A DNA stretch of 64,000 bases from Nitrospinaceae bacterium (GCA_965237905.1 OZ250172.1:128001-192000), one strand, 5' to 3'; shown: positions 51,866 through 56,362, counted from the first letter of the stretch. The notes: a model not told the origin generated them from the sequence alone. A program made the numbers and translations.

Positions 51866-52111
51866 ATGGATAAGGGGAAAGAAAACAAGATCACCATACA
51901 GGCCCGGCTCAAGGTATTGAACAAATCTCTCGTGAGCGAGGAAAATTCATTTCAATACTATCAAACCCTCTTGGAAAATACCGCTCCGGATTCGGATGAA
52001 AAAATCGGGGAACGGCGGATGTATGAAGACCTCCAGGCGGAGGAAAAAAAGCACGTGCAGGTCCTCCGGGATATGATCCAGCTTTGGGAGAATAAGCTTA
52101 AGGATTTTTAA
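51866..52111 (+). CDS. Small two-helix ferritin/rubrerythrin-like protein
   Basis: SEENSFQYY and AEEKKHV (E..Y / EExxH) represent one half of a di-iron four-helix bundle. AAGGA RBS. Confidence 0.7.
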   Translation: MDKGKENKITIQARLKVLNKSLVSEENSFQYYQTLLENTAPDSDEKIGERRMYEDLQAEEKKHVQVLRDMIQLWENKLKDF

Positions 52112-52237: not shown

Positions 52238-52266
52238 TTGACAACATATCTCCGTTAACATATATT
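52238..52266 (+). promoter_or_regulatory. Sigma70 promoter of the iron-uptake operon
   Basis: TTGACA-17 nt-TATATT. Confidence 0.7.
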
Positions 52267-52280
52267 GATAATCATTCTCA
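52266..52280. promoter_or_regulatory. Fur box
   Basis: TGATAATCATTCTCA is a 7-1-7 Fur consensus (TGATAATnATTATCA) with one mismatch. It abuts the -10 element upstream of an iron permease. Confidence 0.8.
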
Positions 52281-52328: not shown

Positions 52329-54500
52329 ATGGTCAAAAGGCCCAAAGGTAAAATGCTCGCCAAAAACAAACCAATGAGAACAACAAGTGTCCTCGCCGCC
52401 CTATTAGGATTCCTTTTAATAGCTCTGCATTTTCCAACCCAGGCTGAGTCTCAGCCTGGAAAACTGGAATCCCAAGTCAAAAAAATCGTGATGATGATGA
52501 ACATCGTCAACAAGGAATACCACGAGGGAATTGCAGAGGGAAAGGTCATCAACGCCGCGGAGTATGAGGAGAGCCAGGTATTTCTGGAGCAGGCGTTTGG
52601 CCGTTACCAGACTCTGACCGAGGGTGCGACACCGCAAGGGAAACAGGACAAGCTGGCCAACCGGTTTTCATCGCTGATTCAAAAGATAAAAAGCAAAGCA
52701 GACCCCGGCGTGATCCAATCAGAGGTCAACGCCATCAATTCCGGAATCCTCAAAAAGTTCAATATCAAGCTCAGCGAAACGCCTTCCGAGCCGGTGTCTC
52801 TCGAAAATGGTCGTACTCTTTACATGAATAATTGCAAGGTATGTCATGGAATTGAAGGCAAAGGAGACGGGCCCATAGCGCCGCAACTGAATCCCAAACC
52901 CGCGGTGTTGGCCAATCCCCAATTCACCGGTGACGAATTTTCCAAACCCTACGACAACTTCCAGATCATCAACGTGGGCATTGCCAATACGGCGATGGTG
53001 GGCTGGGCCGATCAGTTTTCCGAGAAGGAGCTTTGGGATGTCACTTATTTCATCCGGACGTTTTCCAACGAGAATGTGAAGCTTCCGCTGCTGGTTTCCC
53101 AGACCTCATCCCAGGGCATCGAGAAAAGTCGGGAAAGTGCGACCAAAAAAATCTTCAGCGAAGTATTTTTGTTACTGGATCAAAGTCTGGATGCCTACCG
53201 GGAAGGCCGCAACCGGGAGGCTTCGGAGTCCGCTTTCGACGCCTATCTGACCTATGAAAAATTAGAGTCGCCCTTAATCACCAAGCGTAAGGAACTGGGC
53301 CTCAAGCTGGAATCCTCTTTTGGGAGACTGCAGGCGGAAATCAAGCGGAACGCATCCATCGATCTGGTAGAAAAAGTTGCGCAGGGAATTACCGGCGACT
53401 TGAAAGAGGCGCAACAAGTTCTGACTCAAGAGATCGGGTTTACCGGTTTGTTCATCCAATCCTTCTCGATCATCGTGCGCGAGGGATTTGAAGCCATTTT
53501 GATCATCGCGGCGTTGATCACCTTCCTCATCAAATCCCGCAACCAGGACAAACTGAAGGCCATTTATATGGGCGTGCTGATCGGGGTCATCGGTAGTTTT
53601 ATCACCGCGTATATCCTTCAGGAACTTCTGGATATCAGCATGGCCAGCCAGGAAATGATGGAAGGAATCATCATGTTGGTAGCGGTCGTGGTTCTATTTT
53701 ATGTCAGCTACTGGTTGGTTTCTAAAATCGAAGCGACCAAATGGCAAAGTTATATCACCGGTAAAATGCAGAAAGCGGTCACCACCGGCAGTGCCTTTAC
53801 CCTGAGCATGGTTGCCTTTCTGTCGGTTTATCGGGAAGGGTTTGAGACCGTTCTGTTTTACAAAGCCCTGTATCTTTATGCCGGAGACACTACCGCTGGG
53901 ATCATTCCGGGATTTATCGCCGGAAGTGTTGTTTTGGCTGTGGTTTATTTTCTGATCAATCAATTGGGAATGCGTATCCCGGTAAAATGGTTTTTCGTAA
54001 TCACCAGTGTTTTTCTTTATTACATGGCATTCATGTTCATGGGCAAAGGGCTCCACGAATTACAAATGGGAGCAGCCTTGAGCATGACCGGCGCCGACTT
54101 TGCTCCCGAAATTCCCTGGCTGGGCATGTACCCGACCTGGGAAACCTTCATCGGCCAGATGATTCTCGTGGTGGCCTACGCCGGGGCCTTGGTTTATACC
54201 TTCGGCATCAAACAGGAACGCGCGGCCCATGAATTAAAATCGGAGGCGACCCAGATCCAGCAGAATATTACCGTGGTCCACGATCTGGTCGAGCACATTT
54301 CGCACCACGCCAAGCGGTGCGAAATTTTCCTCAAGGATACCCGTGACCAGGACCTTAAGGAATTATCCGCACATTTGAAGGAAATCGACTCCAAAGTCCA
54401 TGAGTTGTTCGATCAGGTGATCTATTTTGAAAACCGCCTGACGGATGAGTACGATCGCTTGTCGCAACCCATCGGCGCCAAGGAAAAGGATTTGCATTGA
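52329..54500 (+). CDS. Cytochrome c-fused FTR1-family iron permease (PbrT/EfeU-like) with an extra C-terminal His-rich tail
   Basis: Signal peptide, CKVCH heme motif, two REGFE motifs, multiple TM segments, GMYPTWE. Start could be 52329, 52353 or 52374. Confidence 0.9.
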   Translation: MVKRPKGKMLAKNKPMRTTSVLAALLGFLLIALHFPTQAESQPGKLESQVKKIVMMMNIVNKEYHEGIAEGKVINAAEYEESQVFLEQAFGRYQTLTEGATPQGKQDKLANRFSSLIQKIKSKADPGVIQSEVNAINSGILKKFNIKLSETPSEPVSLENGRTLYMNNCKVCHGIEGKGDGPIAPQLNPKPAVLANPQFTGDEFSKPYDNFQIINVGIANTAMVGWADQFSEKELWDVTYFIRTFSNENVKLPLLVSQTSSQGIEKSRESATKKIFSEVFLLLDQSLDAYREGRNREASESAFDAYLTYEKLESPLITKRKELGLKLESSFGRLQAEIKRNASIDLVEKVAQGITGDLKEAQQVLTQEIGFTGLFIQSFSIIVREGFEAILIIAALITFLIKSRNQDKLKAIYMGVLIGVIGSFITAYILQELLDISMASQEMMEGIIMLVAVVVLFYVSYWLVSKIEATKWQSYITGKMQKAVTTGSAFTLSMVAFLSVYREGFETVLFYKALYLYAGDTTAGIIPGFIAGSVVLAVVYFLINQLGMRIPVKWFFVITSVFLYYMAFMFMGKGLHELQMGAALSMTGADFAPEIPWLGMYPTWETFIGQMILVVAYAGALVYTFGIKQERAAHELKSEATQIQQNITVVHDLVEHISHHAKRCEIFLKDTRDQDLKELSAHLKEIDSKVHELFDQVIYFENRLTDEYDRLSQPIGAKEKDLH

Positions 54501-56056
54501 GATTCCGGGTTTTTAAAACCTCTCGTGATTTTCACAAATGGACCGGATTTGTCTGCGCAATCTTCATCTTGATACTTTCCATCAGCGGCATTCTGCTCAT
54601 GCACCGGGACTCCCTGGACCTGGACCAAATAGAAATTTCCGCCCAATACCTGCCGGATAAATACTTCCATCTGGTCAAAGACAAACTAAAAATTCAAACT
54701 GTCGCTGTAAATCCCCAAAACGGGAAAATCATTTTCGTGGGCACCGGCAACGGATTGTTCCGCTCCAAAGATGGCGGGGAAACCTGGCAGTCTCTGCACG
54801 ATGGACTGCGTGACGAAAATATCCGTGCGCTGGCTTTACACCCTTCCGCACCCAACATGATCTATGCCGGCACCGCCAAGGGTATTTTCTTATCCGAGGA
54901 TGGCGGGGACCATTGGACCGACTGGTTCGAGGAATCTTCAGGCTTGTCGAACATGGATATCCAAGATTTAGTCATTCATCCTGAAAAACCGGGACTCCTT
55001 TTCGCCGCCACACCCGGCGGTTTGTTTGTTTCCCGGGATGAAGGCGACACTTGGGAACTCACCTTCGAAGGAAATCTGTCCAAGGGAAGTCGGGATGTGC
55101 GTTTTGTCCGCTTCTCCTCCAAGGCCCGCTCCTTGTATATCGGAACGGCCAGTGGAATTTTCAAAAGCGCCGACGGCGGCAAGCACTGGGACAAGAAATG
55201 GGAAGGTGCCCTGCCCTCGCCTCTGTCACTGGTCTCTCTGGACACTGATCCTGAATTTATTTATGCCGGAACCCCGGATGGGCTTTACAAATCTTACAAC
55301 AGGGGAATCACCTGGGTTCATGATACGACACTGGACGAAGCGGTACGCCAATTGGCGGTGGACCCCGGAAATACCACCCATGTTTACATGGGAACGGCCC
55401 GTCATGTTTTCGTTTCCCCCGATGGCGGAGATACCTGGAATCCTTTGGGTTTTGAGGAAGACGATGGAACCACTCTGGATAGTTTGACTCTGGTTCGTTC
55501 TGCCGGGCAATCCTCCCCTACCCTGATCGCCGGCACTTCAAGCGGTCTTTTTATTTCCAAGACTGGAGGACGCGCCTGGAAGGAAACCTCGCTTGCGGAA
55601 ACCATCCAACAAAAATCCGGCGGCCATCTCAAAATGGATCTCGTCAAGTTGATGACGGAAATTCATACCGGACGCTTTTTCGGTGATTACGTTTATCTAC
55701 TGGTGGACATTGCCACCGTTGGACTGTTGGTGTTGGTGTTTTCCGGATTTGGTCTGGCCTTTTACCGGAAGCGAATCGCTAAGTCCAAAGAGGTCAAGAA
55801 GCAAATTACGGAGGAAGAGGCGGTCAACAACTTTCTCAATATTCAGGAGACCGCGGACGGGTTATCGCAGGAGAGTGTGGAAATCCATGACATGATCGAG
55901 CATATCAACTCCCACCTGGCCAAGTGCCGATCGGTCTACATTTCAAAAGAAAAGAAGGAAATCGATAAAATAGGACGGCACATTACAGATTTAGACAAGA
56001 AAATGCATCATCTGATGGAAAAAATCGAGGAGTTCAATAAACTTTCCCAGAACTAG
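54497..56056 (+). CDS. PepSY-associated TM protein with a periplasmic Asp-box beta-propeller and a C-terminal His-rich tail
   Basis: FHKWTG and EIHTGRFFG TM-flanking His motifs, seven SxDxGxxW-like Asp-box repeats. TTG start overlaps the upstream stop. Confidence 0.82.
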   Translation: MRFRVFKTSRDFHKWTGFVCAIFILILSISGILLMHRDSLDLDQIEISAQYLPDKYFHLVKDKLKIQTVAVNPQNGKIIFVGTGNGLFRSKDGGETWQSLHDGLRDENIRALALHPSAPNMIYAGTAKGIFLSEDGGDHWTDWFEESSGLSNMDIQDLVIHPEKPGLLFAATPGGLFVSRDEGDTWELTFEGNLSKGSRDVRFVRFSSKARSLYIGTASGIFKSADGGKHWDKKWEGALPSPLSLVSLDTDPEFIYAGTPDGLYKSYNRGITWVHDTTLDEAVRQLAVDPGNTTHVYMGTARHVFVSPDGGDTWNPLGFEEDDGTTLDSLTLVRSAGQSSPTLIAGTSSGLFISKTGGRAWKETSLAETIQQKSGGHLKMDLVKLMTEIHTGRFFGDYVYLLVDIATVGLLVLVFSGFGLAFYRKRIAKSKEVKKQITEEEAVNNFLNIQETADGLSQESVEIHDMIEHINSHLAKCRSVYISKEKKEIDKIGRHITDLDKKMHHLMEKIEEFNKLSQN

Positions 56057-56092: not shown

Positions 56093-56362
56093 TTAATGCA
56101 GAAAGTTCTTTTCTTTTGAGTTGGAGCTGCTTGACGGACCCAAATCGCGGTTGAAATCCATTTTCTTGAATTCTTCCCACGAATCACGGCAAAGATTGAA
56201 ACCTACAAAATCGATGGCCTGCATCAGCTCCAGATCGGATATTTTATTGTCTCCCGCTTCGGCGCGTGCTTCCTGAATGACGTCTTCAAGGTTTTCGCAG
56301 AGCCGGGCAAAGCGTTCTTCATCTTCCCAATGCAGGACATTTTTCATAAAATCGAAACTCAT
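56093..56362 (-). CDS. Hypothetical protein
   Basis: 89-aa ATG ORF with a GGGGGAG RBS. Confidence 0.7.
   Translation of the reverse strand: MSFDFMKNVLHWEDEERFARLCENLEDVIQEARAEAGDNKISDLELMQAIDFVGFNLCRDSWEEFKKMDFNRDLGPSSSSNSKEKNFLH

Follow-up and report, generated by a model that had tools for sequence, protein, structure and literature searches.

Organization of the locus

The window analysed here is a stretch of 64,000 nucleotides of DNA from a Nitrospinaceae bacterium (GCA_965237905.1 OZ250172.1:128001-192000). This work concerns two genes within it, encoding an iron permease of the FTR1 family (protein A) and a PepSY-TM protein (protein B), two unrelated membrane proteins which end in the same His-rich helical hairpin. 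Close homologues of A and B are named Nitrospinaceae and Nitrospina. The relevant features are the following (positions count from the first nucleotide of the window, lengths are in amino acids, aa, and the type of evidence is given in brackets):

52329..54500, + strand: gene A, cytochrome c/FTR1-family iron permease, 723 aa (Pfam matches, helices, charges)
52803..53060, + strand: cytochrome c domain of A, residues 159-244 (Pfam)
53457..54203, + strand: FTR1 membrane domain of A, residues 377-625 (Pfam, helix/charge analysis)
54225..54443, + strand: His-hairpin copy A, residues 633-705, with its core at 54279-54407 (alignment, conservation, geometry)
54497..54500, + strand: TTGA overlap between the stop of A and the TTG start of B (sequence)
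54497..56056, + strand: gene B, two-helix PepSY-TM protein with a periplasmic BNR/Vps10-type beta-propeller, 519 aa (Pfam)
55832..56050, + strand: His-hairpin copy B, residues 446-518, with its core at 55886-56014 (alignment, conservation, tree)

The stop/start overlap suggests that translation of A and B is coupled.

A common hairpin in two unrelated proteins

The initial annotation had proposed that the two tails align without gaps over 43 residues with 12 identities, and both the coordinates and the alignment were borne out. The tail cores (residues 651-693 of A and 464-506 of B), whose translations match the peptides listed there exactly, share H1, D2, E5, H6, I7, H10, C14, H32, D37, K39, H41 and L43 (12/43, with H651 of A and H464 of B taken as position 1). 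In local alignment the tails score 110; 5000 shuffles averaged 33 and peaked at 79, and a control preserving the heptad pattern reached at most 74 in 5000; in neither series did any shuffle attain the score of the tails (0/5000). The tail pair is also the best local match between the whole proteins. In tblastn searches each tail recovers the other at an E-value (E) of 2e-8, no other match in the genome falling under E 0.2, and the tail profiles find each other at E 1.8e-6 and 2.9e-8, with no third copy among the 22454 open reading frames (ORFs) of the genome. The common unit is larger than the core, at about 70 residues (54225-54443 and 55832-56050).

The first description of these tails needs adjusting in two respects. 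The identities had been taken as nearly all potential metal ligands, and nine of the 12 are indeed His, Asp, Glu or Cys, but D2 points outward from its helix (heptad position f) and is probably no ligand. Likewise, a domain called His/Cys-rich is in fact rich in His only, its one Cys being absent from part of the family. The hydrophobic periodicity was correctly noted, both helices having close to 3.45 residues per turn.

As had been suspected, searches of Pfam, NCBIfam, PDB and the Atlas placed the tails in no named family, all matches being generic coiled coils, and the literature searched, as far as the accessible portions of the texts go, holds no description of a His-hairpin tail. Judged by sequence, the hairpin is a member of no family tested, while A and B belong to known families. 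Hemerythrin-like RIC proteins (YtfE, ScdA), which hold a di-iron site inside the bundle core, were compared with the tails and differ from them: identities are 8-10%, with scores in the generic range, and neither tail matches this group at E 0.1 in Pfam or in PDB profile searches. Whereas these proteins keep iron in the core, the hairpin has a hydrophobic a/d core with its ligands at e/b and g/c. SmbP, CZB, CsoR/RcnR and Csp resemble the hairpin in carrying His/Cys ligands on helical bundles, and are not among the Pfam and PDB sequence matches of the tails (in one of these searches 25 of 61 weak families were listed).

The host proteins and the orientation of the tails

Protein A is predicted to comprise, in order, a hydrophobic N-terminal signal, a periplasmic CxxCH cytochrome c (Pfam Cytochrom_C, E 4e-11), seven membrane helices with two REGFE motifs and a cytoplasmic tail. 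It is a member of the FTR1/EfeU/PbrT (OFeT) permeases (Pfam FTR1 PF03239, E 2.8e-30, 106 bits against a gathering score of 25.3), with the RExxE motifs in helices 1 and 4 (helix 4 being positioned by its motif, not by hydropathy). The family and the Fur-type box described below suggest that it imports iron. Other FTR1 proteins that we read end at most about 15 residues past the last helix, whereas A continues into an extra tail of 99 residues. The numbers of Lys and Arg are 4, 4, 2 and 3 after helices 1, 3, 5 and 7, and 0, 1 and 0 after helices 2, 4 and 6, an alternation that matches an N-out, C-in topology and thus predicts a cytoplasmic tail A. In fungi, Ftr1 has a regulatory cytoplasmic tail. 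Assignment of A as an EfeU equivalog failed, since the cut-offs of NF041756 and TIGR00145 were not reached (107 against 255 and 132 against 304 bits). Among homologues, P0271 (1246 aa) and P0273 (919 aa) are very large tail-bearing FTR1 proteins, the former with P19-like domains fused into its extracellular part. In genome G020 (L080:5924-12193) the permease is split over two adjacent genes, an N-terminal cytochrome part and a tail-less FTR1, and the place of B is taken by a 1153-aa protein which we take to resemble a nitrite oxidoreductase alpha subunit.

Protein B matches Pfam PepSY_TM (PF03929, E 3e-9, 37.6 bits against a gathering score of 28.8), as well as Sortilin-Vps10 (E 1e-20) and BNR. 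Its two helices lie on either side of the propeller, with five Lys and Arg before helix 1 and seven after helix 2; this positive charge outside both helices predicts that both ends, and hence tail B, are cytoplasmic. Helix counts and the positive-inside rule thus agree with the location first proposed for the two tails, on the same, cytoplasmic side of the membrane. His13, His36 and His390 are invariant in the rows having a residue there (58/58, 118/118 and 121/121) and are likely haem ligands. In FoxB, a PepSY_TM reductase of known structure, two haems are ligated by His within four helices (10.1101/2021.01.28.428567; also PMC13038864). Protein B resembles such di-haem reductases in its PepSY_TM match and in its conserved His at both membrane faces, but a single FoxB chain combines four helices with PepSY domains, whereas B has two helices, a beta-propeller in place of the PepSY domains and the cytoplasmic hairpin. 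PMC8238504 links PepSY-like genes to iron reduction and Fur. From these families, B would be a haem reductase releasing Fe(II) in the periplasm; as half of a FoxB-like enzyme (two helices, three His), it would probably have to dimerise, which would bring two B tails together.

Three observations on related genes may be added. A cluster of a porin, an FMN-binding protein and a two-helix PepSY-TM protein, with Fur-like boxes, recurs in several phyla (L031-L036, L038, L051, L052, L140, L144) and is apparently an undescribed minimal reductive iron-uptake set. In G023 (L083:4812-6382) gene B has an apparent frameshift within the hairpin, and in G103 (L109:7-84) all that is left of B behind gene A is a remnant of its tail end, which points to an internal deletion.

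Conservation and predicted metal sites

Conservation was read from alignments of 121 rows for each protein, built from the best 120 of 219 (A) and the best 120 of 147 (B) matches ranked by tail score, so that the contrast between tail and remainder is inflated. With this limit, columns conserved at 97% or more make up 36/44 of the tail core of A, against 127/249 in the membrane domain and 74/321 in the periplasmic part, and 19/44 of the tail core of B, against 40/306 in the propeller. The ligand positions of A (H651, E655, H656, H660, C664, H682, D687 and H691) are invariant in 121/121 rows and those of B are kept in 119-121/121, confirming that the His positions persist in orthologues. Over 65 diverse copies of the hairpin, H1, H10 and H32 are His in 97-98% and D37 is of ligand type in 100%. 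The a/d heptad positions are hydrophobic, and the ligand-type residues flank them at b, c, e and g.

Three sites can be predicted from these positions. Site I (H1, E5, D37 and H41), on the e/b face, is complete in 56/65 copies. Site II (H6, H10, E28 and H32), on the g/c face with C14 and E25 near, has its three His in 63/65. Site III (H-8, D-4, E42 and H46), also on the g/c face, is found in 18/26 FTR1, 9/11 tandem and 1/25 PepSY copies. In tail A the predicted sites are I (H651, E655, D687, H691) and II (H656, H660, E678, H682, with C664 near), site III being just partly kept; in tail B they are I (H464, E468, D500, H504) and II (H469, H473 and H495 with C477 and E488, K491 standing where the fourth ligand would be), and site III is absent. 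The hairpins very probably bind metal, likely Fe(II) or a similar divalent ion. A metal-free coiled coil, in which the His would form a hydrogen-bond or pH-sensitive network, fits the fact that every database match is a generic coiled coil; it does not explain why ligand-type residues are kept in precisely those tetrads that converge in the bundle model below, across distant lineages and in iron loci, and we regard it as most improbable.

The composition of the sites also bears on a structural role, in which permanently bound Zn(II) would staple the hairpins together to assemble a membrane complex, without sensing. Three His with Cys or Glu by the turn (H6, H10 and H32, with C14 and E25) suit Zn, and C14 is invariant in the A and B sets of the order to which the window belongs. 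Over the whole family, C14 is present in 10/10 propeller-type and 18/26 FTR1 copies but Cys is a ligand in just 1/15 minimal PepSY copies, and two to three sites per hairpin, mostly of two His and two carboxylates on the bundle surface, exceed what a clasp needs. Taken with the permeases that persist without any tail (see below), this makes a zinc clasp quite improbable.

Bundle geometry and structure models

The convergence of the sites was examined in an ideal coiled-coil C-alpha model, with the tetrads picked before running. In a lone two-helix hairpin no conserved tetrad converges (radius 7.4-8.1 A), whereas in an ideal four-helix bundle all three close, sites II and III sharing one helix-1/helix-2 interface and site I using the second one. 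The tetrad radii are then near 5 A at the standard phase, and lie between 4.0 and 7.1 when other phases and registers are used. Only 6/224 non-core tetrads converge in the bundle and three of them are the conserved sites, whose lowest ligand shares are 0.92, 0.70 and 0.58; for the other three the value is at most 0.08. Since the sites lie on two different helix interfaces, one interface must lie between hairpins. The bundle is thus probably made of at least two hairpins in this model; the interface between them may be that of either site I or the opposite set, and rings of three or more hairpins may also form. An AlphaFold model of natural tandem copies is a four-helix bundle, to which an Atlas model also aligns over residues 1-157. 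The hairpins forming a metal-binding four-helix bundle, as first proposed, are consistent with the predicted hairpin fold and with conserved ligands that meet in ideal geometry; the Cys included in that proposal is dispensable in many members.

Distribution of the hairpin

A 30-row profile gave 57 matches among 1.84 billion representative sequences, with source names that include Thermodesulfobacteriota, Nitrospirae and Spirochaetes. Architectures were read for 41/57 (Pfam was run on 33): 13 are ends of FTR1 proteins, 16 ends of PepSY-TM proteins, eight tandem-repeat proteins or fragments, three small stand-alone proteins (71-87 aa; P0266, P0290, P0326) and one an unrelated coiled coil. Full-length tandem proteins have two hairpins followed by a transglutaminase-like domain, with no membrane helix, and possibly represent a metal-regulated enzyme. 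Such soluble proteins are found at L055:666-1829 and L057:487-1650 and as P0256 and P0260; their contigs have an archaeal look, and P0256 seems to be without the usual catalytic Cys. In a quick tree of the 65 copies, the 25 PepSY tails form a group apart from the 40 FTR1, tandem and stand-alone copies (SH-aLRT 93), and tails A and B are thus old paralogues. Within the phylum Nitrospinota the hairpin occurs in 81/120 genomes.

Wherever the neighbours of membrane-bound copies were read, the setting is an iron-uptake locus (P19, porins, Fur, FeoB, Bfd/Bfr), with arrangements such as LbtU porin-P19-FTR1-Fur, FTR1-4Fe4S protein-P19-porin, Bfd-Bfr-PepSY-porin-FMN-binding protein and FeoB-DtxR-like-PepSY-porin. 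Fusion to three unrelated outputs (permease, reductase and transglutaminase-like protein) is reminiscent of sensor modules, and a regulatory role of the hairpin seems rather likely. It could instead act as a relay, the bundle taking Fe(II) from the permease to storage or assembly proteins, or its metal passing electrons to the cytoplasmic haem of B. The tail does begin directly after the last helix, ferritin-like neighbours occur, and, according to PMC8238504, 1077 PepSY-like genes carry an NAD-binding domain as the likely electron input. An electron role, however, leaves unexplained why the hairpin occurs on FTR1 alone or on soluble transglutaminase-like proteins, and an acceptor role why it occurs on PepSY-TM alone; we consider a relay improbable.

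A proposed metal-switched pairing of permease and reductase

We propose that the two His-rich hairpins pair in the cytoplasm into a four-helix bundle, in which His/Asp/Glu sites would bind Fe(II) or a similar divalent metal. Each hairpin would have one or more sites between its own helices, plus another (H1/E5 with D37/H41, or the opposite set) that a second hairpin finishes; with one site completed only in this way, metal loading and pairing would be linked. While A imports iron and B, the putative haem reductase, frees Fe(II) in the periplasm from an operon presumably repressed by Fur, metal-switched pairing of their two tails would feed internal iron back on uptake. This is a tentative reading, to which we give somewhat less than an even chance. 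The ancestral use of the hairpin would be self-pairing on one protein, and in this order, with both genes bearing the tail, tail A may serve mainly as the link to B. CDF, MgtE and CorA transporters have cytoplasmic metal-sensing domains that tune transport; the hairpin is like them in the proposed mechanism only (metal bridging of cytoplasmic domains), has no sequence match to them and is an all-helical unit of 70 residues common to two unrelated proteins. By this analogy, we guess that the metal-loaded state damps uptake.

Support for pairing between A and B comes from the window's order, in which the permease was found in 92 genomes and gene B in 58 (co-occurrence counted by hand from tables). 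All 58 genomes having B also have tail A. Of the 34 without a B match, eight are undecidable and 26 have a contiguous locus with B absent; tail A is lost in 17/26, the protein always ending 9-16 residues past the last helix, and no partial tail was seen among the order genomes examined. These losses fall in five places of a quick permease tree, one of the genomes belonging to the window's own genus. Such permeases without any tail also count against the zinc clasp.

The same material bears on pairing restricted to A with A and B with B, an old sensor domain then tuning both proteins in parallel with no direct A-B link. Other lineages carry one copy per genome, A-type and B-type tails are the two old clades of the tree, nine of the 26 B-less genomes retain tail A, and B, with its two helices and three conserved His, needs two copies for a FoxB-like four-helix di-haem core. 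This exclusive self-pairing does not account for five lineages of tail loss that are all B-less, with none in 58 genomes with B, nor for the stop/start overlap, which suggests a joint complex. We judge it unlikely.

Several observations weigh against A-B pairing or against the switch built on it. The geometry comes from idealised helices; in the tandem model the pLDDT is only about 60 in the bundle region, and another AlphaFold model (pLDDT 82, pTM 0.37) has one hairpin and one long helix, with no bundle. Dimerisation of B, which is likely for its haems, favours B-B pairing. Five of the nine retained orphan tails A show at most one change (in two of the nine, C14 is replaced by Ser), and the orphan tails as a group are not significantly more changed than the others (mean 2.3 against 0.9 differences, p 0.09). 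Related genomes are not independent and tail A adjoins B, so that one deletion may remove both, and the co-loss is suggestive only. In the class of G122, 21/96 genomes match the hairpin, with one match each; the 18 regions fetched gave at least 14 FTR1 tails, two PepSY tails, one false match and one without a match, and at one locus a PepSY protein whose tail is degenerate lies two genes away from a tail-bearing FTR1. Three Nitrospirota genomes combine a PepSY tail with a tail-less FTR1, five deep Nitrospinota (78-89% complete) have a PepSY tail with FTR1 not found, and G002 has an FTR1 tail alone. Self-pairing must therefore be possible and is likely ancestral, and obligatory A-B pairing is not general. 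Finally, the direction of regulation and the identity of the metal are guesses. The pairing of A with B put forward initially fits the retention of tail A in all B-bearing genomes of the order but is not established over self-pairing, given the single-copy lineages, and for this order we regard it as evenly balanced.

Bacterial FTR1-type uptake is known to be controlled at the level of transcription, and Nitrospinota, whose enzymes are rich in iron, are major nitrite oxidisers of the sea. If metal-switched pairing is true, a cytoplasmic metal-gated tail adds a fast layer of control and a physical link of periplasmic reduction to import. A bolder extension, which we hold to be rather unlikely, would make the hairpin a portable iron gauge, carried by a soluble enzyme fold as well as by permeases and reductases, in which the site between chains assembles only when cytoplasmic Fe(II) is high; in marine nitrite oxidisers it would clamp the reductase to the permease, as the first post-translational off-switch of FTR1-type uptake. 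The hairpin is in any case an unnamed protein family and a predicted simple, natural, multi-site metal scaffold. Comprising 70 soluble residues with named ligand sets, it makes pairing, metal choice and gating cheaply testable, with natural tail-less permeases as ready controls.

Surroundings of the operon

Two further features lie upstream:

51866..52111, + strand: half-ferritin-like/EncB-like ORF of 81 aa, upstream of the Fur box (Rubrerythrin E 6e-4, EncB-like 3e-4, both under the cut-off)
52266..52280, + strand: Fur-box-like 7-1-7 inverted repeat, upstream of the operon (pattern match to TGATAATnATTATCA)

The pattern TGATAATnATTATCA is what we take to be the Fur-type box consensus. The repeat is its sole match in the window at up to two mismatches and carries one; the window match by itself is not significant, as 23/100 shuffles also yield one. 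Genome-wide, the operon box is one of two matches at up to one mismatch, the other near-perfect box lying at C1:597735. Fur-type boxes were found at or just upstream of the 5' end of the orthologous FTR1 gene in L041-L046, L050, L079, L081-L084, L086, L087 and L089, and none by that gene in L048, L049, L080, L085 and L088. From the known families, the operon would be repressed by Fur. The half-ferritin-like ORF, single-copy in the genome and found in five fetched loci, is a putative member of the system. On the other side, a conserved 89-aa gene with no Pfam family (56093-56362, - strand) is convergent with the operon in almost every syntenic locus that was read.

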